Part shown: piece after piece, positions 6,010 to 64,000 of the stretch
How positions within the stretch are numbered: position 1 is the first letter of the stretch
Layout: every line of letters starts with the position of its first letter
DNA from: an uncultured Eubacteriales bacterium
Lineage (GTDB): Bacteria; Bacillota; Clostridia; Christensenellales; CAG-917
Length of the DNA: 64,000 bases
Assembly (NCBI GenBank): GCA_900548005.1
Contig: URIZ01000001.1
Coordinates: 93,756-157,755, forward strand
Reading direction: 5' to 3'
Position numbers and translations under genes: made by a program
Notes under the pieces: model-generated
What the model saw: only the letters and a program-made list of their open reading frames with translations
Database searches by the model: none
Told to the model about the DNA's origin: nothing

Positions 6010-6468
6010 ATGGAAGTTTATAACAAAGAAAAAACACAAATTATATCGGATTATGACCTTTCAAAAGGACGCCTTGAGCGCGATGAACGTACGATTTATC
6101 ATGAGGAAATAAAGGAAGTGGTGGAACAATTTCATTATGAAGTGGTAAAAGAATACGAAAACGGCGGCAAGGACGTGGAAAAAGTGGTGGACGTCAAAGG
6201 AGTGCCGGGACGCGATGCCTACGAAGAAACGGAGGACATCTATGTTTTCATTCCATATACGGATGAAGAATTAAAGAAAAAAGAAGACGAAATTCTTTAT
6301 TCCGAATTAAGCGCTTGGTTCGATTGGTACGATATACAGGTAAGTCAATATGAAAGATCCAAGAGATTGGAAATAACCTTTGATAGAGACATCGCCACAT
6401 TGGACGCAGAGGCGGTTCAAAAAGCGGAGCAGATGAGAGAAGTTAAGGATAGATTGGGAATAGAGTAA
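6010..6468 (+). CDS. Hypothetical phage protein (152 aa, acidic)
   Basis: AAGGAGG ribosome-binding site. Lies between the fibres and the holin. The motif WFDWYDIQVSQYERSKRL recalls XkdW-like proteins of Firmicute phages; this is from memory and only weakly supported. Confidence 0.5.
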   Translation: MEVYNKEKTQIISDYDLSKGRLERDERTIYHEEIKEVVEQFHYEVVKEYENGGKDVEKVVDVKGVPGRDAYEETEDIYVFIPYTDEELKKKEDEILYSELSAWFDWYDIQVSQYERSKRLEITFDRDIATLDAEAVQKAEQMREVKDRLGIE

Positions 6469-6469
6469 T

Positions 6470-6766
6470 ATGATAGCAATAATTATGAGTATATGTGCGA
6501 GCATCATCAGCGGAATGGTGCTCTTTTTCTTGCAAAGATTTTTCAAGAAAAAGCAAAAGGTAGATGAAGAGCGAGACAGAGCTAAAGCCAAAGAGAACTT
6601 GCTGATACTAAAAAGTATAGATGCGGTCGGGAAATTGACGTATGCGGATGCGGTAGCCATTCGAGACGGGAAAACCAACGGCGAGATGAAAGAGGCGATG
6701 AAAGCCTATGCGGAAGTTAAGGATGAACTCTACGAGTATTTGCTCGAACAAAATTCCAAGAAATAA
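6470..6766 (+). CDS. Single-pass membrane protein, putative lysis accessory
   Basis: N-terminal TM helix (IAIIMSICASIISGMVLFFL) followed by a charged coiled segment. It starts 1 nt after the previous stop and lies immediately upstream of the holin. Confidence 0.5.
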   Translation: MIAIIMSICASIISGMVLFFLQRFFKKKQKVDEERDRAKAKENLLILKSIDAVGKLTYADAVAIRDGKTNGEMKEAMKAYAEVKDELYEYLLEQNSKK

Positions 6767-25172: not shown

Positions 25173-26126
25173 ATGTTTGTAAAATTCTTGACAAGCGCAA
25201 TCGCGTTGAGCTCCGTGTTCCTTTACGGCTCAACGGGTGAAATCATCGTCGAAAAAGGCGGACACCTCAACCTCGGTATCCCCGGCATCATGAGCGTCAG
25301 CGCGGCAGTCAGCGCGCTTGTTGAATACGCGCTCATAAAAGGCATGGGTACAAGCGCACCGGCTTTGCTTGTGATTATACCAATCATCGTAGCATTTCTC
25401 GTGGGCGGACTTATGGGTTTGCTATACAGCTTTCTCACCGTCACGCTCAGATGCAATCAAAACGTCGTCGGTCTTGCAATGACCACTCTCGGCGTAGGAC
25501 TTGCGGGCTACTACATGACAGGCGCAGGCTCAAAGATCATGATCGTCGCAAGAGCAAGCAAATATTTCGCCACGCTTTTCGATGTGTCGGGTGGCGGCGC
25601 ATTTGCCAAAATATTCTTCTCGCACGGCATCATGGTGTATCTTGCAATCATCATCGCCGTCATCGCGCAAATCGTGCTCAGCAAGACAAGAACAGGTCTC
25701 AATCTCCGTGCCGTCGGTGAAAACCCCGCAACCGCGGATGCTGCAGGCATCAACGTTTCAAAATATAAATATGTCTCAACCGTTATCGGTTGCGGTATAT
25801 CCGGTTTGGGCGGTCTCACTTGCGTTATGGACTATATGGGCGGCAACTGGGAATACGTTCTCGAAGGCTTTGGCTGGCTCTCCATTGCACTTGTCATTTT
25901 CACGCTTTGGAAACCCGCATTGTCAATTCTCGGCTCAATCATTTTCGCCGGTTTGTACATCGCATCCTTCTACGTTGAAGGCATCTCGTTTGCGCAAATC
26001 GAACTCATCAAACTCTTGCCTTACGTTGTCACCGTTCTTGTGCTTATCATCACCAGCATGATCAACAAGCGTGAAACGCAAGCACCGGCGGCGCTGGGGC
26101 AGTCGTATTATCGCGAAGACAGATAA
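25173..26126 (+). CDS. ABC transporter permease (BMP-system, second subunit)
   Basis: Starts 2 nt after the previous stop, following AAGGGGG. Polytopic, with the motif TRTGLNLRAVGENPATADAAGINV typical of this permease family. Confidence 0.85.
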   Translation: MFVKFLTSAIALSSVFLYGSTGEIIVEKGGHLNLGIPGIMSVSAAVSALVEYALIKGMGTSAPALLVIIPIIVAFLVGGLMGLLYSFLTVTLRCNQNVVGLAMTTLGVGLAGYYMTGAGSKIMIVARASKYFATLFDVSGGGAFAKIFFSHGIMVYLAIIIAVIAQIVLSKTRTGLNLRAVGENPATADAAGINVSKYKYVSTVIGCGISGLGGLTCVMDYMGGNWEYVLEGFGWLSIALVIFTLWKPALSILGSIIFAGLYIASFYVEGISFAQIELIKLLPYVVTVLVLIITSMINKRETQAPAALGQSYYREDR

Positions 26127-26251
26127 AAACGCGCTATTGAGCGAACAACTTCGGCAGAGCCATGCTCCCGTCAACTCATGTACTAAATGTACATTAGGGT
26201 TGCCGTTAGCGTGGCTCTTTCTTGTTCTTCATCTCAATATCGCGTTTTTAT
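26123..26251 (+). repeat. Long-hairpin element, copy A (129 nt)
   Basis: Near-complete palindrome centred at 26186. Outer stem ATAAAAACGCG/CGCGTTTTTAT, then TATTGAG/CTCAATA, GAACAA/TTGTTC, AGAGCCATGCT/AGCGTGGCTCT, and apical ATGTAC-TAAAT-GTACAT. Confidence 0.85.
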
Positions 26252-26362
26252 AGTTTTGATTTGTTAGATTTTTATCTCACTAACCGCGCCGAAAATCTTT
26301 GACAGTTCTATCACGGGCAAAAACTCCAGCCGCAATTTCGCAAGATTGTCGGCTTGGTGATT

Positions 26363-40488: not shown

Positions 40489-40555
40489 GCGATAAGAACA
40501 ATAAATCTATAATAAAATAGAATAAAACACAATAAAAAACAATAAAAGCACAATC

Positions 40556-40585
40556 AAAAAGACGCTCGTTTTGAGCGTCTTTTTC
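40556..40585. terminator. Bidirectional terminator
   Basis: AAAAAGACGCTC-GTTTT-GAGCGTCTTTTT. Confidence 0.8.
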
Positions 40586-40653
40586 GTTGCATTTTTGTTA
40601 CATCTTTCGTTGCATTTTTCCTTGCTTATCATTCATTTGTGTCACGGCGAAAA

Positions 40654-49416: not shown

Positions 49417-50733
49417 ATGGCAAAAATGACAATCCGCGACGTAGACGTCAAAGGCAAAAAGTGTTTGGTGCGTTGTGACTTCAACGTGCCGATGGTTGAC
49501 GGTGTTATCACCGACGAGAACCGCATCAACGGCGCTCTTCCCACCATCCAATATCTCGTTGATCACGGCGCAAAAGTGATCCTTTGCTCGCACATGGGCA
49601 AGCCTCACAACATCTTCACGGAAGGTTTCGGCCTCAACAAGAAGGAAAAGAAGGCTGTTGAAGCTCTTCCCGAATCCGAGCAAGCGGCTGCAAAAGCAGA
49701 ATATATTGCAAAAGCTCTCAAAAACGATCAAAAGAAATTCACTCTCAAGCCCGTTGCGGACAAACTCGCCGAGCATTTCCCCGGCAAAGTCACATTTGCA
49801 ACCGATTTGGTTGGCGAAGACGCTCACAACAAAGTTGCCGCTCTCAAAGACGGCGAGATTGTTTTGCTTGAAAACACTCGTTTCTATGCAGGCGAAGAGA
49901 AGAACAGTGAAGACCTTTGCAGACAACTTGCAGACTTCTGCGACATCTATGTCAACGACGCATTCGGCACGGCTCACCGCGCTCACGCAACCACCGCAGG
50001 TATCGTTCAATACGGTTTCGCGCCCGTGGCTGTGAGCGGTTTCCTTATCGAAAAAGAGCTCAAATTCCTTGGCAATGCAATCGAACACCCCGTTCGTCCG
50101 TTCGTTGCGATTCTCGGCGGCGCAAAAGTTGCCGACAAGCTCAACGTCATCGACAATCTTCTCAACAAATGCGACACGCTCATCATCGGCGGTGGCATGG
50201 CATACACCTTCATCAAGGCTCAAGGCGGCAGCGTCGGTCTTTCTCTCGTTGACGATGAAAAGATCGATTATTGCAACACCATGCTCGCAAAGGCAAAAGA
50301 GCTCGGTAAGACCATTTATCTTCCCGTTGACACCGCAACTTGCGCAGGTTTCCCCGATCCTATCGACGCACACGTTGACATCGAATATTGCCCCAGCGAC
50401 GCAATCCCCGCCGACCGCGAAGGTCTTGACATCGGCCCCAAGACGCAAGAGCTCTTTGCTCAAGCCGTCAAGTCCGCAAAGACTGTCGTTTGGAACGGTC
50501 CTATGGGCGTTTTTGAAAATCCGCAACTCGCAGCCGGCACGAACGCCGTTGCAAAAGCCATGGCAGAAACCGACGCAACCACGATCATCGGCGGTGGCGA
50601 CTCCGCAGCAGCCGTTGCTCAACTCGGCTATGCCGACAAGATGACTCACATCTCAACCGGTGGCGGCGCATCCTTGGAATTCCTTGAAGGTAAGGTTCTG
50701 CCCGGCATCGCCTGCCTCAACGACAAGCACTAA
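49417..50733 (+). CDS. pgk: Phosphoglycerate kinase (with a ~37-aa insertion after the GKP motif)
   Basis: [28 protein letters not shown] and [14 protein letters not shown] are present. AAAGGAG ribosome-binding site. Confidence 0.95.
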
Positions 50734-50846
50734 TCGGCGAACAACTGCGTCAAATCGTTTTTTTCGCCCGTCACGTACGCAAAGTACGTTGGGCGGGTGA
50801 AAAAAACACTTTTCCTTGTTCTTCATCCGATTATCGCTGTCGTTGA
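50717..50846 (+). repeat. Long-hairpin element, copy B (130 nt), overlapping the last 5 codons of pgk
   Basis: Palindrome centred at 50781: TCAACGACA/TGTCGTTGA, TAATCGG/CCGATTA, GAACAA/TTGTTC, TTTTTTTCGCCCG/CGGGTGAAAAAAA, and ACGTAC-GCAAA-GTACGT. Confidence 0.85.
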
Positions 50847-50898
50847 CACGTGACAATATGAAGGGACAGAACATTCAATTTTCGCAATCGTTCGACAA

Positions 50899-51010
50899 GC
50901 ACTAATCGGCGAACAACTGTGTTAAATCAGTTTTTTCACTCGTCACGTACGACAAGTACGTTGGGCGAGTGAAAAAAGCAGCTTTTCCTTGTTCTTCATC
51001 AGATTAGCGC
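50899..51010 (+). repeat. Long-hairpin element, copy C (tandem to B)
   Basis: Centred at 50953: GCACTAATC/GATTAGCGC, GAACAA/TTGTTC, TTTTTTCACTCG/CGAGTGAAAAAA (12 bp perfect), and ACGTAC-GACAA-GTACGT. It is preceded by a 17-nt copy of the pgk 3' end. Confidence 0.85.
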
Positions 51011-51084
51011 GTGCGTTTTATACCTAGCGGAATAGGACGGAACAAAGGAAAAAACATATTGAAAATAAATTTTTGGAGTATATT

Positions 51085-51895: not shown

Positions 51896-53461
51896 ATGAA
51901 AAAACTTGTTTTAGTCGTTATGGACGGCGTTGGCAAGTCCAAGACGGGACTCGGCGATGCCGTAACTTTGGCAAACACTCCGACGCTTGACGCTCTTCTC
52001 AAAGAATGCCCCAACACCTACATCAAGGCGCACGGCACGGCGGTCGGTCTTCCCAGCGACGACGATATGGGCAACAGTGAAGTCGGTCACAACGCGCTCG
52101 GTTGCGGTCAAGTCTATTCGCAAGGCGCAAAACTCGTTGAAGAAGCAATCGAAAGCGGCGATATTTTCAATTCTGCCGCATGGAAAGAGCTCAAAGACAA
52201 CTGCGTTGCCAACTCGTCCACGATGCACTTCATCGGCTTGCTCTCGGACGGCAACGTGCACAGCAACATCGGTCACCTTATCGCTCTTGTCAAGGGCGCA
52301 AAGGAAAGCGGCGTAAAGCACGTTCGCATCCACGTTTTGCTTGACGGCAGAGATGTCCCCGCAACAAGTGCGCTCGTGTATGTCGATATGCTCGAATCCG
52401 CTCTCAAACAGCTCAACGACGACAACTTTGACGCATGCATCGCAAGCGGCGGTGGCAGAATGGTCATCACTATGGACAGATATTTCGCAAACTGGGATAT
52501 GGTCAAACAAGGCTTCTACACCCACGTTTACGGACATGGTAGAGGCTTTGCATCCGCAACGGACGCAATCGAAACCTACCGCGCGGAAAATCCCGGCGTC
52601 ATCGACCAAGATTTGCCCGCATTTGTCATCGTCAAGGACGGCAAGCCCGTCGGCGCAATGCACGACAACGACAGCGTCATCCTTTTCAACTTCCGCGGCG
52701 ACCGCGCAATCGAAATCTCTATGGCGTTTGACAATGACGATTTCAGCGGCTTTGATCGCGGAAATATGCCCAAAGTGCTTTACGCAGGTATGCTTCAATA
52801 CGACGGCGATTTGCATCTCCCCAAGAGATTCCTTGTCGAGCCGCCGCAAATCAAATATACGCTCAGCGAATTTCTCGTCAACCATGGCGTGAAGTCCTAC
52901 GCTGTGTCCGAAACGCAAAAGTACGGCCACGTCACGTATTTCTGGAACGGCAACCGCTCCGAAAAATTCAGTGACGCTCTCGAAGTGTGGGAAGAAGTCC
53001 CCTCCGACAAAGTGTCCTTCGATCAACGTCCGTGGATGAAGTCCGCAGAAGTCACCGACAAGGTCATCGACGCGATCGAATCCGATGAGTACGGATTTAT
53101 CCGCTGCAACTATCCAAACGGTGATATGGTCGGTCACACCGGCAATCTCGATGCCACAATCATCGGTGTCGAGGCAGTGGATCTCGCTCTTGCAAGACTC
53201 CTTCCCGTCATCAAGAAAAACGACTATGCTCTCATCGTCACCGCCGATCACGGCAACGCCGACGAGATGCTCGAAAAGAACAAAAAAGGTCAAGTTGCCG
53301 TGCGTACCGCGCACTCGCTCAACCCCGTTCCTTTCATCGTCTACAACTATGATTGCACCATCGCCGACGGCTCTTTCGGACTTTCCGATGTAGCCGCAAC
53401 GGCAGTGAAGATTATGGGGTTTGAGCCGGATGCTCACTGGGACCCGTCCATAATCCGCTAA
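51896..53461 (+). CDS. gpmI: 2,3-bisphosphoglycerate-independent phosphoglycerate mutase
   Basis: LVVMDGVG, GNSEVGHNALG, LSDGNVHS and TADHGNAD are iPGM hallmarks. Length 521 aa. Confidence 0.95.
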   Translation: MKKLVLVVMDGVGKSKTGLGDAVTLANTPTLDALLKECPNTYIKAHGTAVGLPSDDDMGNSEVGHNALGCGQVYSQGAKLVEEAIESGDIFNSAAWKELKDNCVANSSTMHFIGLLSDGNVHSNIGHLIALVKGAKESGVKHVRIHVLLDGRDVPATSALVYVDMLESALKQLNDDNFDACIASGGGRMVITMDRYFANWDMVKQGFYTHVYGHGRGFASATDAIETYRAENPGVIDQDLPAFVIVKDGKPVGAMHDNDSVILFNFRGDRAIEISMAFDNDDFSGFDRGNMPKVLYAGMLQYDGDLHLPKRFLVEPPQIKYTLSEFLVNHGVKSYAVSETQKYGHVTYFWNGNRSEKFSDALEVWEEVPSDKVSFDQRPWMKSAEVTDKVIDAIESDEYGFIRCNYPNGDMVGHTGNLDATIIGVEAVDLALARLLPVIKKNDYALIVTADHGNADEMLEKNKKGQVAVRTAHSLNPVPFIVYNYDCTIADGSFGLSDVAATAVKIMGFEPDAHWDPSIIR

Positions 53462-53574
53462 ATCGCGAATAGCATCGGCAAAGCCCCTTGCCCATCAACT
53501 CATGTACGATTTGTACATTAGGGTTGCTGTTCAAGGGGCTTTTTCTTGCTCTTCATCGATTTATCGGATTATGG
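53448..53574 (+). repeat. Long-hairpin element, copy D (127 nt), overlapping the last 4 codons of gpmI
   Basis: Palindrome centred at 53510: CCATAATCCG/CGGATTATGG, TAAATCG/CGATTTA, AAGCCCCTTG/CAAGGGGCTT, and ATGTAC-GATTT-GTACAT. Confidence 0.85.
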
Positions 53575-53635
53575 CGTATATATAATTTTTGCGTTATTTT
53601 TCTGATTGCGGATTATGGGGGCTTAAAACAATTTT

Positions 53636-53669
53636 GTCATTGCGAGCCGACTTGTTCGGCGTGGCAATC
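53636..53669 (+). repeat. GTCATTGCGAG...GCAATC hairpin module (variant of the GTCATTCTGAGCG module)
   Basis: ATTGC/GCAAT stem enclosing an inner GCCGA-CTTGT-TCGGC hairpin. The frame (GTCAT..GAGC....ATC) matches the ATTCT/AGAAT modules. Confidence 0.6.
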
Positions 53670-53711
53670 TCGCGGTAGCGGAATGATGTGAAATGACATA
53701 TATATAGTGCT

Positions 53712-53806
53712 GTTTCGTTTCCACGAGATTCTTCGACTACGCTCAGAATGACACGGAAAATTTGATAATTGTCGATTTTTCCAAATCGGGTGTGGGTGTC
53801 CCACCC
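53712..53806 (-). repeat. Modular intergenic repeat unit (inverted copy of 26363-26455)
   Basis: GTTTCGTTTCCACGAGATTCTTCGACTACGCTCAGAATGACACGG...CGGGTGTGGGTGTCCCACCC is the reverse complement of the 26.4-kb unit, at about 93% identity. Confidence 0.85.
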
Positions 53807-53810
53807 AACT

Positions 53811-53915
53811 GTCATGTTGAGCATAGTCGAAACATCCAGCCGCAAGGCGCATATCTTGTTTTTTCTTTTCGCTACGCTAGATTCTTCGATGCTCTCAGAA
53901 TGACACGGAATATTG
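53811..53915 (-). repeat. Second modular block (inverted counterpart of 26420-26502)
   Basis: GTCATGTTGAGCATAGTCGAAACATCCAGCCGCAAGGCGCAT...CGCTACGCTAGATTCTTCGATGCTCTCAGAATGACACGG aligns at about 80% with the reverse complement of 26420-26502. Confidence 0.75.
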
Positions 53916-53997
53916 GAATTTTACCGCTTAAAGCAAGCGATGCCGTTGCCGCGATGACGGCTTTTGTTCATTATTCATTATTTATTACTAATTAAGT

Positions 53998-54028
53998 AAA
54001 AAAACACACTCAGTTAAGTGTGTTTTTT
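53998..54028. terminator. Bidirectional terminator (serves the convergent antiporter gene)
   Basis: AAAAAAACACACT-CAGTT-AAGTGTGTTTTTT. Confidence 0.75.
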
Positions 54029-58860: not shown

Positions 58861-61800
58861 ATGAAAAAAGCTATGGTCGGTATTCTCATCCTTATCCCGA
58901 TCCTGATCCTTGTCATTGTCGCAATGGTGTCCAACATCGTGTCCATGCAAGCGTGGATAAGCGTCGAAGACTTGCTCATCACGGAGAAGGGGACGGAGCG
59001 TGCCGCAGACACTATCACTTTGTCGCTTGACGCAATCAGGGGCAAGACCGTCAGCGTTTTCGATTACGTGGACGTCAAAGTGCTTCCCGAGAAGGCGAAC
59101 AAGTATACGATAGAGTGGAAAGTGGACAGCAACGTCACCTATACGGATGAAGACTACCAAGAAAGATACGCCGCGTATCTTGTCGAGTACAATCGCGTAA
59201 GGGCGGAGATCGAAGGGGAATATCCCACCTTCTCAACCCCCGAAAAACAAAACGCGTACAACTTGGCAAAACTCAAATACGCGTCCGACTCGACAAAGAT
59301 CATCGACGAGATGACTCGCTCGCTTGTTGGAAGGATGTCACCGGCGGTTGCTTTTGTGGGGGATGACGGCTTCACGGTCGATTCCAACTCCACGGGCAAG
59401 TTTGTCGCCTCGTCCTATTGCAATTTCACCGTCAAGGTGGTTGCAGAAAACGTTTCAAAAACTTTGTCCGTTTCCGTTGTCGGTGACAACGTAGAAAGAG
59501 TCACTCTCGGCAATTTGAACGGCGAAGACAACAATATCAAGGTTGGTCAATCAAGACGTCTTGTACCGACCTACACTCCGATTGACAGCATAGTCAATCA
59601 CACCGTGTGGCAAAGCGACAAGCAAGACGTTGCGACAGTCGATCAAAACGGCGTTGTCAAGGCTCTCAAAGCCGGCAGCGCAAACATCACCGTCAAGGCA
59701 AGCGTTCACTCCACCGAGAAAGGTGAAATCGCATACGTTGAGAGCGGCAAGTACACAATCAACGTCACGGCGGACGGCGCAAGCAGCGTGTACGGAGATA
59801 CGCTTTATACGGCGGCTCGCAGCCGCAGCTTGACGCTCGCTCAATTGGGACTTTCAAGCGGCGCAACGGCTGTTGAAGGTTGCGAGATTTCGGGCAATGA
59901 AGTCAAAATAACGGCGGAAAAAGCCGTCATTCGCACGGCAAACGGCGATTTTGTCGTATATGCAGTGGAAGACGGCGCAATCTCGATCGAAAACGCAAGT
60001 TTCTTTGAAAACAAGGAAAACGGCTATGTTTTGGCAGTGGGCGATCACACGCTCAAGCTCTCGGCTGTATTTGCGGATCAACTTGCAACTTCCGCCGTTG
60101 GCAACGTGAATTGGACGTCTTCGGACACCGACGTGGCAACCGTTTCGGCAAACGGTGAAGTCAAGGGCGTCAAAAACGGATACGTCACCGTCACCGCAAC
60201 CGCGGACAACGGCAAGAGCACGTCCATAACTCTCAATGTGCGCAACAAACTTGCATCCCTTCAACTTCGCACTTCCGACTCGTCACTTGCGGTCGGTATG
60301 GCAAAAGAAACCGTGTTTGCAAGCGAAAGATACAAAAACGGCGCATTTGAAAAAGAAGCCAACTTCATGAACGTGGTCGTTCAAGGCGAGCCGAGAGATG
60401 CAACCGAGGCTCAACTTGCCGATTTCTACGAATCATACAAGTTCGAGATCGTGTCGGGCGGCGAATATGCGCATTTCGATACTACTGTGGCAAACAAGCT
60501 CGTGTTTGACTCCGCTCTCGAAGGCAAGATGAAACAGAATATTGTCGTGCGCGTGAGCGCGCGCTATCCAAAGCATGAAGGCATGAGCAAGTTCACCACC
60601 GAAGACGTGACAATCACTGCCGTTTACGGTGTGAGCGTATCCGACATCGATCAGCTGCTCAAAGCCGTGCAAGAGCAAAAGGCGTATGCGTACAAAGAAG
60701 GCAACTTCGTCCCCGCAGTCACCCGCTTTCAACATCAGAACGGCGATGACAAATACATCGTGCAAGAAAACGAGAGTTCTCTCAACACCTATGCGGTGTG
60801 TCTCACTCAAAACTGTGCCTACAAAGTCGTGTATGACGAAAACGGCAAGGTCGTGGGCATCGGCGACAGAGAGGGCAGAGCTCAGTTCTACGGCGATTTG
60901 TATGGCAACAACCACATGATCTCGGCAATCACGGGGCAGGTGGATCACCAACTAATCCGCATATCTTGGAGCAATTTGACCGTGTCCAACGTCATCTTGC
61001 GCGGAAACTCTTCTCCCGAAGACAAGGAGATAAACAACGCGCAGGACACAAAGTCGTTCAAGGGCGATTTGGTCATTCTCGGCAGCGACGTGCATTGGGA
61101 CTATTATAGATTGGTCAACGTCAAGTTCGAGTACTGCATTTTGGAAAACGGCGTCAACGGTTTCTCCTGTCGTAACAACGATTTGCAACTTAACGGCTGC
61201 GTCATCCGCAACTTGCTCGCATCGGGCATAACCACGCCGCAACGCGTGTGTTACAGGGATGAAGACAAAGCAAATCACCCGTATTATTCGCACGTGAAAT
61301 TGCACAATCTCGTGTTTTCCAACACGCTCGGCTCGCTGCTTGTCATCACCAATGAGAAGTTTGCCGTCAAACCGACTGCGGACGGAAAAGGCGAATATCG
61401 TTTCGTCCCCGGCGACGAAGAGGCAAACTACAAATACGCCATAGAACATTTCTACAGCAAAGGCATCAACTGCGAAGTGGAGCAAACGGGATTCTTGGAA
61501 GCGTACAACTGGCAAGACGTGTCCAACGCCAAATTGTTCTTCACGGGTGACGACTACTACGATTTGCTCATTCAACAGGCAAGCGAGGCGGTGCTCAGAT
61601 TCAACAGCGCGTTTGAAAACTATCGCTACGTAGACTCAAACAACACTTGCTGGTTGCACGTTGCGATCGTGGCGGCGGGACTTTCGTTTGACGGCACGGG
61701 TATGTACACCGAAGTGCCTATGCCCAAGATCTCTCTTGCCAACATGGAAGACTACTACACGCTCGACACTCGCACAATGAAGGTGGAAAGCAAAGAATTC

Positions 61801-61932
61801 CTCGGCATTGCCGCCGAAAAACTTCTCATGGGTATGCCGTTCTTTGTTTACGGCTATCCCAACAATGCAAAAATCATGCCGTATTCGACCTACACGTTGA
61901 ATGCCGCATTTATCGACAGAATGCACAACTAA
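58861..61932 (+). CDS. Membrane-anchored surface protein with Big_2 (bacterial Ig-like) domains and a possible C-terminal beta-helix (1023 aa)
   Basis: AAGGAG ribosome-binding site and an N-terminal TM anchor (VGILILIPILILVIVAMV). Big_2 signatures: VATVDQNGVVKALKAGSANITVKA and VATVSANGEVKGVKNGYVTVTATA. The C-terminal part has beta-helix-like repeats (NLTVSNVILRGN...), judged by eye only. Confidence 0.75.
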   Translation: MKKAMVGILILIPILILVIVAMVSNIVSMQAWISVEDLLITEKGTERAADTITLSLDAIRGKTVSVFDYVDVKVLPEKANKYTIEWKVDSNVTYTDEDYQERYAAYLVEYNRVRAEIEGEYPTFSTPEKQNAYNLAKLKYASDSTKIIDEMTRSLVGRMSPAVAFVGDDGFTVDSNSTGKFVASSYCNFTVKVVAENVSKTLSVSVVGDNVERVTLGNLNGEDNNIKVGQSRRLVPTYTPIDSIVNHTVWQSDKQDVATVDQNGVVKALKAGSANITVKASVHSTEKGEIAYVESGKYTINVTADGASSVYGDTLYTAARSRSLTLAQLGLSSGATAVEGCEISGNEVKITAEKAVIRTANGDFVVYAVEDGAISIENASFFENKENGYVLAVGDHTLKLSAVFADQLATSAVGNVNWTSSDTDVATVSANGEVKGVKNGYVTVTATADNGKSTSITLNVRNKLASLQLRTSDSSLAVGMAKETVFASERYKNGAFEKEANFMNVVVQGEPRDATEAQLADFYESYKFEIVSGGEYAHFDTTVANKLVFDSALEGKMKQNIVVRVSARYPKHEGMSKFTTEDVTITAVYGVSVSDIDQLLKAVQEQKAYAYKEGNFVPAVTRFQHQNGDDKYIVQENESSLNTYAVCLTQNCAYKVVYDENGKVVGIGDREGRAQFYGDLYGNNHMISAITGQVDHQLIRISWSNLTVSNVILRGNSSPEDKEINNAQDTKSFKGDLVILGSDVHWDYYRLVNVKFEYCILENGVNGFSCRNNDLQLNGCVIRNLLASGITTPQRVCYRDEDKANHPYYSHVKLHNLVFSNTLGSLLVITNEKFAVKPTADGKGEYRFVPGDEEANYKYAIEHFYSKGINCEVEQTGFLEAYNWQDVSNAKLFFTGDDYYDLLIQQASEAVLRFNSAFENYRYVDSNNTCWLHVAIVAAGLSFDGTGMYTEVPMPKISLANMEDYYTLDTRTMKVESKEFLGIAAEKLLMGMPFFVYGYPNNAKIMPYSTYTLNAAFIDRMHN

Positions 61933-61943
61933 GGAGCGACACG

Positions 61944-64000
61944 ATGAAAAAAGTAATGATAGGAATGCTCATCTTGATACCGATTCTCATCCTTGTGATA
62001 GTTGCGCTCGTTTCAAGCATCATATCCATTCAGGCATGGATAAGCGTTGAAGACATAATTCTCAAACACAAGGGCACGGAAAACGTTGCCGAAGATATAT
62101 CTTTCAACTTTGCAAACGTTGCCAACAAGACGATAAATCTCTACGATTATATCGACGTCAAGGTGCTGCCAGACAAGGCGAACAAGTACACTGTTGAGTG
62201 GCACATCACAGGTGACGTCATCTGCACCGATGACGAGTATCAAGCAAAATACGAAAAGTACAAACAAGATCTTTCCGCTCTCAAATCAGAGCTTGAAAGC
62301 GAATATCCCAATTTCACCGATCCCGAACGCAAGAACGCGTACAAGACGGCAAAATCCCAATACGGCGACGACTCTGTCAAGATCATCAACGCAATGGCGG
62401 ACACGCTCTTGACAAGGGTTTATCCTGCCGCAAGTATGGTTGACGGAGAAGGCAATGACGTTGCGTCCAACACAACTGCGAAAATGGTGATCGGCTCATA
62501 CTGCAACTTCACGATCAAGGTCGTTGCAGAGACCGTTTCCAAGACGCTCAACGTGTCGGTTGTGGGCGACAATGTCGAGAGAGTCACTCTTGGCAATTTG
62601 GCAGGTGAAGACTCCAACGTCGCAGTGGGCGACAGCAAGCGTCTTGTGCCAAGCTACACGCCCATTGACAGCATCGTCAACTACACGATCTGGCACAGCG
62701 ACAACGAAGAAGTGGCAACAGTCGATCAAAACGGCGTTGTCAGCGCGCGCAAGGCAGGCACGGCAAACATCACCATGCAAGCAAGCGTGCACTCAACAGA
62801 AAAAGGCGCGTCACAATACGTCACGTCCGCTCCGTACACAATCACCGTCACGGCAAACGGCGCAAGCAGCGTGTTCGGCAAGGCTCTTTATACGTCCCGA
62901 AAGTCCTTCACGTTTGAAGAACTCGGAATTGACGCAAGCTCCACCGAAAAAGAAGGTTGCACCATTTCGGGAGATAACGTCACGATAACGGGCGATAAAG
63001 CCGTGATTCGCACGGCAAACGGCGATTTTGAGATTTTCTCGGTCGGCGCGGATTCTATCGTGATAGAAAACGTGGACTTCTATTCCAAGCAATCGGGATT
63101 TGTTCACGCCGTGGGCGAGCATACGCTCAAACTCAAAGCGATTTTTGCCGATGAACTTGCCACCGACACTCTCGGCGCAATCGAATGGTCTTCATCGGAT
63201 ACGGACGTTGCCACCGTCAACGACAATGGCGAAGTCACGGGATTGAAGAACGGCACGACAATCATAACCGCAAAGAGCGCGACCGCCACCACGAGCATCG
63301 AGATTCACGTGCAAAGCAAGATTGCGTCCATGCAACTGCGCACGTCCAATGCGCGCCTTGCAATCGGTCTTGCAAGAGAAGCGGTGTTTGCAAGCGAAAG
63401 ATACGTCAACGACGCTTTTGAAAAAGAGCCCAACTTTGTTGACATCGCAGTGCAGGGCGAGCCGAAAGACGCAACCGCGGAAGAGCTTGCGCTCTTCTAT
63501 TCCGCATACAAGTTCGAGATTGTGTCTGGCGGAGAATACGCGCACTTTGACGAAACAGTCGCAAACAGACTTGTGTTCGATTCTGCTCTGGAAGGCAAGG
63601 GCAAACAAAACATCGTTGTCCGCGTGAGCGCGCGCTATCCCAAATATGAAGGATTGAGCAGATTTACAACCGAAGAAGTGACAATCACTGCCGTCTACGG
63701 CGTTGCCGTCAAGAACATTGCCGAGCTTCGCAATGCTGCCAATTTCCAACAATCATACGCTCGTGCCGAAGGCAACTTCATCGGGCCCGAAATGACGTTG
63801 GATCTCAATCCCGAAGGCGGAAGATACTTTGTGTACACTCAACACGGATCGCACAAAACCTATGCGATTTGCCTTGAAAACAACATCGAGTTTGACAAAA
63901 ATTCGGACGGCACTCCCGTGCCTATCACTGGTGACAATAATATTAGACTGTATGGCAATTTGTACGGCAACAACCACATGATCTCATCGCTCAAAGGGCA
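61944..64000 (+). CDS. Paralogue of the preceding surface protein (3' end outside the window, absent from the ORF track)
   Basis: ATG at 61944 lies 8 nt after AAGGAG. The frame is open to the window end. Its translation, MKKVMIGMLILIPILILVIVALVSSIISIQAWISVEDI...VATVDQNGVVSARKAGTANITMQA..., is about 60-65% identical to 58861-61932 throughout. Confidence 0.85.
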   Translation, partial: MKKVMIGMLILIPILILVIVALVSSIISIQAWISVEDIILKHKGTENVAEDISFNFANVANKTINLYDYIDVKVLPDKANKYTVEWHITGDVICTDDEYQAKYEKYKQDLSALKSELESEYPNFTDPERKNAYKTAKSQYGDDSVKIINAMADTLLTRVYPAASMVDGEGNDVASNTTAKMVIGSYCNFTIKVVAETVSKTLNVSVVGDNVERVTLGNLAGEDSNVAVGDSKRLVPSYTPIDSIVNYTIWHSDNEEVATVDQNGVVSARKAGTANITMQASVHSTEKGASQYVTSAPYTITVTANGASSVFGKALYTSRKSFTFEELGIDASSTEKEGCTISGDNVTITGDKAVIRTANGDFEIFSVGADSIVIENVDFYSKQSGFVHAVGEHTLKLKAIFADELATDTLGAIEWSSSDTDVATVNDNGEVTGLKNGTTIITAKSATATTSIEIHVQSKIASMQLRTSNARLAIGLAREAVFASERYVNDAFEKEPNFVDIAVQGEPKDATAEELALFYSAYKFEIVSGGEYAHFDETVANRLVFDSALEGKGKQNIVVRVSARYPKYEGLSRFTTEEVTITAVYGVAVKNIAELRNAANFQQSYARAEGNFIGPEMTLDLNPEGGRYFVYTQHGSHKTYAICLENNIEFDKNSDGTPVPITGDNNIRLYGNLYGNNHMISSLKG

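Follow-up and report, generated by a model that had tools for sequence, protein, structure and literature searches.

The Correia elements of Neisseria and the ERIC/IRU sequences of enterobacteria are interspersed imperfect palindromes of 100-170 nt that are co-transcribed with neighboring genes into long RNA hairpins, often lie near gene ends, occur in tandem or nested copies, and possess conserved terminal inverted repeats with a TA target duplication. Integron attC sites, imperfect palindromes of similar size at the 3' ends of open reading frames (ORFs), share one orientation, conserve structure over sequence, and can overlap the stop codon. Intrinsic terminators of Firmicutes can also overlap gene ends, with the hairpin at or inside the stop, an A-tract before it and a T-tract after it. 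Hairpin-forming bacterial miniature inverted-repeat transposable elements (MITEs) are treated in a general review (PMC2229807). Repetitive extragenic palindromic (REP) units have stems of 5-13 bp, loops of 2-20 nt and a GTAG or CGTC tag, and REP dimers may form large single-strand hairpins (PMC3733652). At the DNA level, template switching corrects imperfect inverted repeats to perfect ones, and longer repeats deviate more from expectation, which has been ascribed to a readier formation of secondary structures that promote switching (PMC5941160); further reports describe how template switching homogenizes the arms of inverted repeats and expands their size (PMC13100816; also PMC8604942, PMC7202029). 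Here, we analyzed a 64-kb stretch of DNA (the window) from an uncultured Eubacteriales bacterium (contig URIZ01000001.1), in which a hairpin repeat of approximately 130 nt overlaps the ends of an ABC permease gene, pgk and gpmI and, at pgk and gpmI, carries an inverted copy of the last codons in its non-coding arm.

Copies in the window were located with a covariance model (CM R1), which was built from 54 diverse copies and run unfiltered on the 64 kb. The model found exactly four copies, all on the forward strand, with sense scores of 90-131 bits and antisense scores of 19-51 bits. Three of them had been noted in the original prediction, and the pairing between gene end and opposite arm described there was exact at each site: TCAACGACA (50717-50725) with TGTCGTTGA (50838-50846) at pgk, CCATAATCCG (53448-53457) with CGGATTATGG (53565-53574) at gpmI, and ATAAAAACGCG (26123-26133) with CGCGTTTTTAT (26241-26251) at the permease gene. 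Each of the three folded as one long imperfect hairpin (-57 to -65 kcal/mol; z -6.9 to -10.4 against dinucleotide shuffles). The fourth (50890-51018) adds to those already noted; the duplicated pgk end makes up its 5' arm, which leaves its outer stem poor. A weak model match at 40511-40630 was an ordinary terminator and was rejected as a repeat copy. In the following list and below, signed numbers such as -18 are positions in the anchored profiles of the copies, and L-numbers are labels of compared loci.

25173 to 26126, forward strand: ABC permease ORF (Pfam domain BPD_transp_2)
26122 to 26252, forward strand: permease copy, canonical and consensus-like (131 bits on the forward versus 51 on the reverse strand; minimum free energy [MFE] -61.3 kcal/mol, z = -9.6)
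26124 to 26126, forward strand: TAA stop at the end of the permease ORF, identical with the first bases of the element's TAAAA end, the commonest arrangement in the family
49417 to 50733, forward strand: pgk ORF (Pfam domain PGK)
50717 to 50846, forward strand: pgk repeat copy 1 (107.5 bits; MFE -57.3 kcal/mol, z = -6.9)
50717 to 50725, forward strand: the outermost 5' arm, made of native pgk codons (TCAACGACA, L-N-D-K region) that are kept in element-free relatives and outside the consensus, at -21..-13
50728 to 50733, forward strand: CAC TAA, the last pgk codon and stop, within the element's GC(A)CTA(A) motif; GAC TAA at this place in element-free relatives
50838 to 50846, forward strand: TGTCGTTGA, non-coding inverted copy of the pgk codons at the place of the family's T-tract, a perfect 9-nt complement
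50871 to 50892, forward strand: relic of the 3' end of a 'copy 0', ACATTCAATTTTCGCAATCGTT, homologous to the copy inserted inside the pgk codons in L110, L111 and L144
50893 to 50905, forward strand: duplicated former pgk end CGACAAGCACTAA (D-K-H-stop), now non-coding, a direct repeat of 50721-50733
50890 to 51018, forward strand: repeat copy 2, the tandem partner of pgk copy 1, with a poor outer stem (90 bits; fold z = -3.9; arm alignment)
51896 to 53461, forward strand: gpmI ORF (Pfam domain iPGM)
53446 to 53576, forward strand: gpmI repeat copy (130 bits; MFE -65.2 kcal/mol, z = -10.4)
53448 to 53461, forward strand: gpmI codons S-I-I-R and TAA at the ORF end as the 5' outer arm, with CGC TAA in a GCGCTAA motif; the ends in relatives have the same length
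53565 to 53574, forward strand: CGGATTATGG, the 3' outer arm complementary to the gpmI codons (arm alignment)
53591 to 53618, forward strand: relic of the 3' arm of another copy, GCGTTATTTT-TCTGATTGCG, followed by a second GGATTATGG (comparison with L057, L109, L144 and L157)

To follow the repeat beyond the window, a strict pattern built on its conserved apex and 3' loop was run against the GTDB species representatives, and more than 108 stretches carried it among the matches listed. The hosts of these matches were all uncultured gut or rumen Clostridia metagenome-assembled genomes, labeled 'Christensenella sp.' UBA7588, UBA767, UBA6880 and UBA7571, CAG:238, CAG:475 and several UMGS bins, with a few carrier bins under plainly wrong names; CAVKIG01 was the genome closest to the window among them, and the complete 1.65-Mb chromosome CP091723.1 was also a carrier. 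From the window and the family loci, 95 full, non-identical copies were extracted, on which the family-wide counts are based. Their architecture is a single rod of about 130 nt with 47 pairs in the model, a stem of about 60 bp interrupted by large internal loops. From the outside inward, an outer stem (P1) comes first. It leads to an asymmetric loop that is invariant (5' strand GCGAAYARC, 3' strand CTTGYTCTTCATC; GAA/CAA and TTG/TTC are paired), then to a second loop and a variable stem; the apex is a hairpin, TCAYGTAC-N5-GTACRTTRGG, which is likewise invariant and always contains a T.G juxtaposition. In the 54 diverse copies, 95.7% of cells were paired, compared with 71.8% in shuffles and only 35-44% in slid registers, double-change cells numbered 574 against 169 in shuffles, and compensatory change was seen in 33 of the 47 pairs. 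Copies that are not on an ORF end mostly lie head-to-tail, as most of the remaining copies among the 95 follow another copy in arrays. Contigs frequently end inside copies, such as L189 (ERZ28595906 scaffold_122) and several L0xx contigs, indicating that the family breaks short-read assemblies. Searches of the copies and five related loci against Rfam 15, at gathering and permissive thresholds, gave no relevant match (best E-values on the copies 1.2-7, all to unrelated miRNA or snoRNA models), and across the whole window only one tRNA reached the gathering score. The element pattern had no match in viral contigs, and a full-text literature search returned no paper describing the family, which appears to be undescribed so far.

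The repeat resembles a MITE or REPIN in its size and as a repeated hairpin. It shares with the Correia and ERIC MITEs the size, the repeated hairpin, the siting at gene ends and the tandem and nested copies; however, its termini are the least conserved part while its internal loops and apex are conserved, its orientation is strongly biased, and it has no sequence similarity to them. The conserved terminal inverted repeats of a TA-duplicating (IS630/Tc1-like) MITE were not found, as the ends carry only 0.2-1.4 bits and the outer stems are about 64% identical. Many copies are bounded by TA...TA, but within palindromic TAAAA/TTTTA ends, and two before/after comparisons gave direct repeats of ACGAC or of ~31 nt, not of TA. 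Like the REP/REPIN sequences associated with RAYT transposases, the family consists of repeated extragenic palindromes. Membership in that group was rejected because each copy is a single 47-pair rod of ~130 nt with other invariant motifs, unlike the REP unit as defined in PMC3733652; CGTC in the 5' loop is itself variable (CGTC, CGGC, TGTC). With attC sites the repeat shares size, siting at ORF 3' ends, orientation, a structure more conserved than the sequence, and stop overlap, but its hosts are housekeeping genes (PGK, iPGM, ABC permease) and its head-to-tail tandems contain no cassettes; no attC core sites (RYYYAAC / GTTRRRY) were seen by eye in the aligned copies, a pattern search not having been run. 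Intrinsic terminators offer another parallel in that the hairpin of canonical copies likewise begins at the stop codon or within it and is preceded by an A-tract and followed by a T-tract, although the ~60-bp stem with large internal loops sets the repeat apart. The consensus ends in CGCG-TTTT(T/A), and TTTT follows the stem in 54 of the 95 copies but in neither pgk copy 1 nor the gpmI copy. A simple terminator scanner, which is blind to hairpins whose apex is far from the T-tract, called no copy. The repeat would form a very stable hairpin at the transcript 3' end, and where the T-tract is kept, it may act as a terminator or 3'-end stabilizer.

Other repeated sequences accompany the family. 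A second, related subfamily, with the core GCG[CAT]CTAACTTTGTCAG ... CTTTCGCGTTAT[GAT]CATC, shares the architecture and the siting on stop codons, and gene ends are mirrored in it as well (L157:6380-6490; the gpmI end of L117 and L118, about 6440-6575; L185:6440-6660; L144:6530-6690). Nested inserts of ~60 nt (GGACGCGATTGACGC..AACAATCGCTATTCCGTCACTTCGTTCCTTACA) lie within the 5' internal loop of several copies (L144:6560-6600; L035, L092, L066), forming a repeat inside a repeat. A block of 300-500 nt with TTCCCC(T/C)TTCCTCA..GTGTTT and GGGAACCCACGG..GCACTCGCATAGATA occurs in either orientation in or beside copies (the pgk-tpiA spacer of L113; L112, L114 and L116; L157:6700-7100; downstream of gpmI in L109 and L144) and had no Rfam match. 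Pieces of yet another repeat (GTCATTGCGAGC... and ...GCGATGCCGTTGCCGCGATGACGGCTTTTGTTC) are present at 53632-53672 and 53930-53965 of the window; in L010, L042, L080 and L014 this repeat adjoins the hairpin element right after CTTCATC, in place of its 3' arm.

Whether an arm is specific to its locus depends on the family consensus of P1, which in anchored profiles of the 95 copies reads (T)AAAA-n-CGCGCTA-TTnA-GCGAA on the 5' side and CATC-TnAA-TATCGCG-n-TTTT(T/A) on the 3' side. Conservation was lowest at the ends (about 0.2-1.4 bits at -18..-12, compared with 2 bits in the internal loops), and the information content fell to zero only beyond -18/+17. Measured against this consensus, the earlier claim that the three flanks are unrelated to one another held in part. 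The pgk arm (TCAACGAC at -21..-14) lies outside it, without the A-tract and without a T-tract opposite, and is the sole arm of this sort in the window. The gpmI arm is mostly a diverged form of the consensus, the same arm ATAATCCG also being a non-coding arm in L057 and L144, and only its CC falls clearly beyond the consensus; the permease arms ATAAAAACGCG / CGCGTTTTTAT are the consensus itself. Since gene ends are A-rich and 3' flanks T-rich, the complementarity might be a matter of composition, with A-rich gene ends pairing by chance with T-rich downstream DNA. However, the two arms of a copy scored 10.4 on average compared with 1.7 for arms swapped between copies, a control that keeps the composition and yields far fewer pairs; the mirrored pgk tract contains G+C; and mirrors of 24 and 11 nt found in relatives exceed what composition could produce. 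Coincidence is thus almost certainly not the explanation, and the view that the pairing goes beyond chance was borne out. Flank complementarity is present family-wide, the stem reaching at least -14 in 79 of the 95 copies with a median end at -18.

The interiors of the copies are decoupled from their outer stems. In 71 non-orthologous pairs, the interiors were at least 90% identical whereas the outer stems were only about 64% identical; this value of about 64% also accompanied interiors 93-100% identical, compared with 51% for random pairs. Examples are the permease copy of the window versus L108, and, within a single genome, L077 versus L102. This pattern means that resident stems swap their interiors or, alternatively, that the outer stems evolve at a much higher rate. 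The decoupling is a point in favor of a reading in which the element, or its interior, enters or converts the loop of a resident hairpin overlapping the gene end, the outer stem being resident DNA. No permease orthologues were present among the loci compared, and a look-up of the exact protein gave just one further contig, which breaks off inside the element 116 nt past the gene.

Gene ends coincide with the repeat throughout the family. Under the criterion of a co-oriented ORF of at least 80 codons ending within the 5' arm, the upstream sense ORF ends inside that arm in 68 of the 95 copies, with the first base of the stop placed as follows.

-18: 23 copies, in the context TAAAA (the commonest)
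-15..-17: 22 copies
-19..-22: 10 copies
-7: 5 copies, GC-TAA-AT, the column of the window pgk and gpmI stops
-6: 1 copy, the TAG in GCATAGCC (L069)
-4: 4 copies, the TGA of TTGAGCGAA
+4: 3 copies, the TAA of GCGAATAAC

As the original prediction had noticed, the TAA stops of pgk and gpmI share one alignment column, in the CTA(A) motif, and its suggestion that the element can supply the stop codon describes a property of the family. Stops in all three frames are present within -20..+7 in 28 of the 95 copies; since the 5' arm carries stops in different frames, genes terminate within the arm, which in some cases also encodes their final residues. The UvrA-like ORFs of L055, L070 and L067, which end in ..TGQFLK(N/S)VL(F/L)SE*, read through the whole 5' arm and stop at the TAA of the invariant GCGAATAAC, so that their last seven residues are encoded by the repeat. 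Antisense-only cases, in which an ORF on the other strand ends in the 3' arm, numbered 5 against the 68 sense cases, and some of these ORFs are spurious. Stop-codon supply cannot explain this bias because both arms read TAAAA from outside, which implies a transcript-level constraint or a strand-specific insertion confounded with gene strand.

Selection at the RNA level would account for part of this picture: the repeat would be a functional hairpin of the 3' untranslated region, serving as terminator, stabilizer or protein-binding site, and point mutations in the free non-coding arm would be fixed as they lengthen or restore pairing. Consistent with such selection are the sense bias, the invariant asymmetric loops with their fixed U.G, the massive covariation, the higher forward-strand score of the permease copy, and the layout of A-tract, stem and T-tract in about half of the copies. 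However, sporadic mismatches at otherwise Watson-Crick positions showed no G.U bias (83 G.U-type versus 101 A.C-type, the invariant U.G set aside); an apparent G.U excess from single-sequence folds (107 versus 45) was discarded, being due to that one invariant position. It is also implausible that perfect mirrored tracts of 9-24 nt were built up one substitution at a time, the T-tract has been lost in the pgk and gpmI copies, and no Rfam family corresponds to the hairpin. We therefore consider RNA-level selection an unlikely source of the mirrored arms.

The origin of the mirror can be traced at pgk and gpmI, housekeeping genes of a conserved gap-pgk-tpi-gpmI operon, by comparison with relatives. 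A metagenome scan with the TpiA of the window gave 80 loci at 98-65% identity, most of which cover both gene ends. In 46 distinct copy-free relatives, Pgk ends in ...PGIACLNDK*, ...LNDKD*, ...LNNK* or ...LNEK*, with end DNA such as AACGACAAGGACTAA and pgk-tpiA spacers of 16-100 nt. The end in the window, CTCAACGACAAG-CAC-TAA, is this native end but for GAC -> CAC, a difference that coincides with the GCACTA motif of the element and leaves the protein length unchanged. The earlier proposal that the pgk 5' arm is native coding sequence is hence supported by the same C-terminus in all 46 element-free relatives, and the non-coding arm is the derived one, as had also been proposed, given that the inverted copy is missing from the 46 empty pgk sites and 13 empty gpmI sites. 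The 3' mirror TGTCGTTGA is common to L057, L110, L112, L115 and L117.

These empty sites also bear on the idea, one of two mechanisms put forward in the original prediction, that the element inserted into pre-existing hairpins at gene ends. Besides the decoupled interiors, three observations speak for it: L021 reads ATTAAAGCGTT-TA-[copy]-TA-AACGCTTTAAT, the element-free L119 has AACGAC-AAATAA-GTCGTT at its pgk end, and in some relatives a further copy ('copy 0') sits in an AACGAC/GTCGTT stem. However, when the last 15 nt and stop were compared with the next 60 nt, an inverted repeat longer than 6 nt was found at 0 of the 46 empty pgk sites and at 0 of the 13 empty gpmI sites, with a distribution equal to that of shuffled downstream sequence. 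The 6-bp hairpin of L119 was not accepted as ancestral, since shuffled sequence yields 6-nt matches just as often, and the nearest outgroups (L149, L146, L135) have no inverted repeat. The mirrored stems, moreover, are AT-rich coding sequence and not terminator-like, and the idea accounts for replacement within an existing stem, not for the first origin of the mirror. As an explanation of the mirrored ends, loop insertion thus seems unlikely, and the pre-existing hairpins it was proposed to require are not seen at the empty sites; a modified version is alive for replacement events, not for the origin of the mirror.

Copy 0 lies inside the pgk codons in close relatives (TpiA 94-98%), where Pgk ends in NDRAN* and the old pgk end CGACAAGCACTAA is displaced downstream, with the same junction in L110, L111, L117 and L144. 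This displacement accounts for the pgk codons in copy 2 of the window and for the relic of copy 0 just before it. In its 3' arm, copy 0 follows the Asp codon of its host, AACGAT/ATCGTT with GAT (L110, L144, L111) and AACGAC/GTCGTT with GAC (L117, L185), so that a synonymous change in the gene is compensated in non-coding DNA. At its junction, CTTAACGAC[copy]GTCGTT-CC-ACGACAAGCACTAA, an inverted AACGAC is followed by a direct ACGAC. Such a junction would be expected if the act of insertion duplicated the 5' target flank in inverted form and placed it, along with a short direct repeat, on the 3' side of the copy. In the same vein, L054 reads ...TGTCAAATTGCATTAA[copy]TTAATGCAATTTGA-TGTCA, and the mirror is found at several independent insertions. 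However, most copies (median stem end -18) have 0 or 1-2 extra pairs, so the signature is not obligatory, and the copy 0 junction equally fits a history in which [pgk end + copy 1 + mirrored flank] was duplicated in tandem and the interior was converted afterward. For a B' copy, L144 and L109 differ by a ~31-nt direct duplication together with 22 nt of donor-locus flank, and this duplication and carried-over flank argue less for a fixed cut than for recombination or template switching during replication. Judged from their sequences, both before/after comparisons look like recombination or replicative template switching, and we regard insertion chemistry as a very unlikely cause. Among 189 loci, flank BLAST gave no clean empty/filled pair, nearly all candidates being tandem arrays or recombinants, and no fixed target-site duplication emerged.

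The gpmI locus repeats the pattern with other codons. In copy-free relatives, GpmI ends in ...HWDAPIIK* or ...NPSIVK* and is followed by ordinary terminators that include no coding bases; the GpmI of the window ends in ...PSIIR* at the same length. For every copy adjoining gpmI, the 3' flank mirrors the codons of that lineage, as listed here.

Window: CCATAATCCG
L144, L109 and L057 (copy A): CGCAATCA-t-AAAATAAC..., with the mirror ...GTTATTTTT-c-TGATTGCG
L117 and L118 (second subfamily): CCATTATAAAATAATCGCACC
L116 (decayed copy): GGGATCCATCTATAATTCGCTAAA, 24 nt with one mismatch

The mirrors span 24 nt in L116, 11 nt in L117 (CCATTATAAAA), and at least 8 nt in L144 (CGCAATCA). Elsewhere than at these two genes, L054 and L003, orthologues from different species, share an 11-nt mirror of the codons before the stop. 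The relic at 53591-53618 of the window mirrors the alternative gpmI end (CGCAATCA..AAAATAAC) known from relatives. Family-wide, among 45 copies with a paired stop codon, at least 2 further Watson-Crick pairs extended into the last sense codon in 21, compared with 4.3 expected from swapped flanks, and at least 4 further pairs were seen in 6 compared with 0.24 expected (maximum, 11). The mirrored gene end is therefore real and more general than the three examples of the window. The spacers at both pgk and gpmI have a mosaic make-up, in which duplications and conversions are mixed with copy-to-copy deletions. Downstream of gpmI, a 24-nt direct repeat, CTCAGAATGACACGGAA(A/T)ATT(T/G)GA, occurs at 53742-53765 and 53894-53917, 152 nt apart, and a classical bidirectional terminator (AAAAAACACACTCAGTTAAGTGTGTTTTTT, 53999-54028) separates the gpmI repeat array from the next gene downstream, which is convergent.

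The reading that these data support best, and in our assessment a modestly probable one, is that the palindrome grew outward through template switching within one strand, the constrained coding arm serving as the template. A long stable palindrome would repeatedly undergo intrastrand template switching during replication (quasi-palindrome correction), in which the newly made strand would fold onto the first arm and use this arm and its flank as a template, so that the arms would be homogenized and the palindrome extended outward. Events overwriting the coding side would be purged by selection, and only the non-coding arm would change, tracking the gene end, including its synonymous sites. At pgk and gpmI, the element adjoins or overlaps the native last codons, and the 3' arm there consists of inverted codons, not of the consensus. 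The lack of a G.U excess, together with mirrored tracts of 9-24 nt that are confined to the non-coding side and missing in outgroups, fits copying at the DNA level. The derived arm is an exact complement that runs past the former repeat boundary, as would be expected of a template-switch product. In common with quasi-palindrome correction in the Ripley model, imperfect arms become identical in multi-nucleotide perfect tracts at the DNA level, the repeat can grow, and longer, more stable hairpins are more prone to the process. The present case differs in that one arm is the end of an essential gene, which makes the process effectively one-directional, and in that the seed palindrome is an interspersed repeat and the events are known from comparative data only. 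This mechanism, the second of the two originally suggested, is consistent with all of the data and has precedent in the literature.

Several points weigh against it. The template-switch events are inferred and none was observed directly. The pgk mirrored tracts are old, being common to all relatives with TpiA identity of at least 94%, and their origin cannot be dated relative to the insertion. L003 keeps a later mismatch (TAT codon versus ATG), indicating that correction is not continuous. The sense bias (68 versus 5) is left unexplained by template switching and points to a transcript-level or strand-specific constraint. In addition, nearly identical interiors within divergent outer stems would also be expected from the swapping of cores into resident stems.

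A more far-reaching possibility, which we consider quite unlikely, is an undescribed element that would be spread or maintained by fold-back DNA synthesis, such that insertion writes the inverted upstream flank or the resident hairpin grows into the gene. If so, a fold-back element would build gene-end hairpins from coding sequence and would couple the synonymous-site evolution of essential genes to non-coding DNA. The family is best classed as a hairpin repeat of the MITE/REPIN type combined with quasi-palindrome expansion, and no new principle is involved unless fold-back belongs to the insertion.

Apart from the repeat, positions 58861-64000 of the window hold a ~3.08-kb tandem duplication (73-85% identity) of a large coding region, which probably encodes paralogous repeat-containing surface or large proteins.

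Collectively, our analysis describes an apparently uncatalogued repeat family that is abundant in a widespread uncultured lineage of gut Clostridia and breaks its assemblies. The repeat alters protein C-termini, as seen in Pgk (...NDKH* or ...NDRAN* versus the native ...NDK(D)*) and in the element-encoded tails of UvrA-like proteins, and programs that call genes or predict terminators should allow for stops and 3' ends within such repeats. The mirrored ends provide a natural, replicated case of inverted-repeat expansion capturing coding sequence, in which the ends of essential glycolytic genes and the downstream non-coding arm evolve in concert, down to the synonymous site. Should this be the work of template switching, the loci would offer a comparative system for a process mostly known from reporter assays and would show how stable gene-end hairpins can arise de novo.

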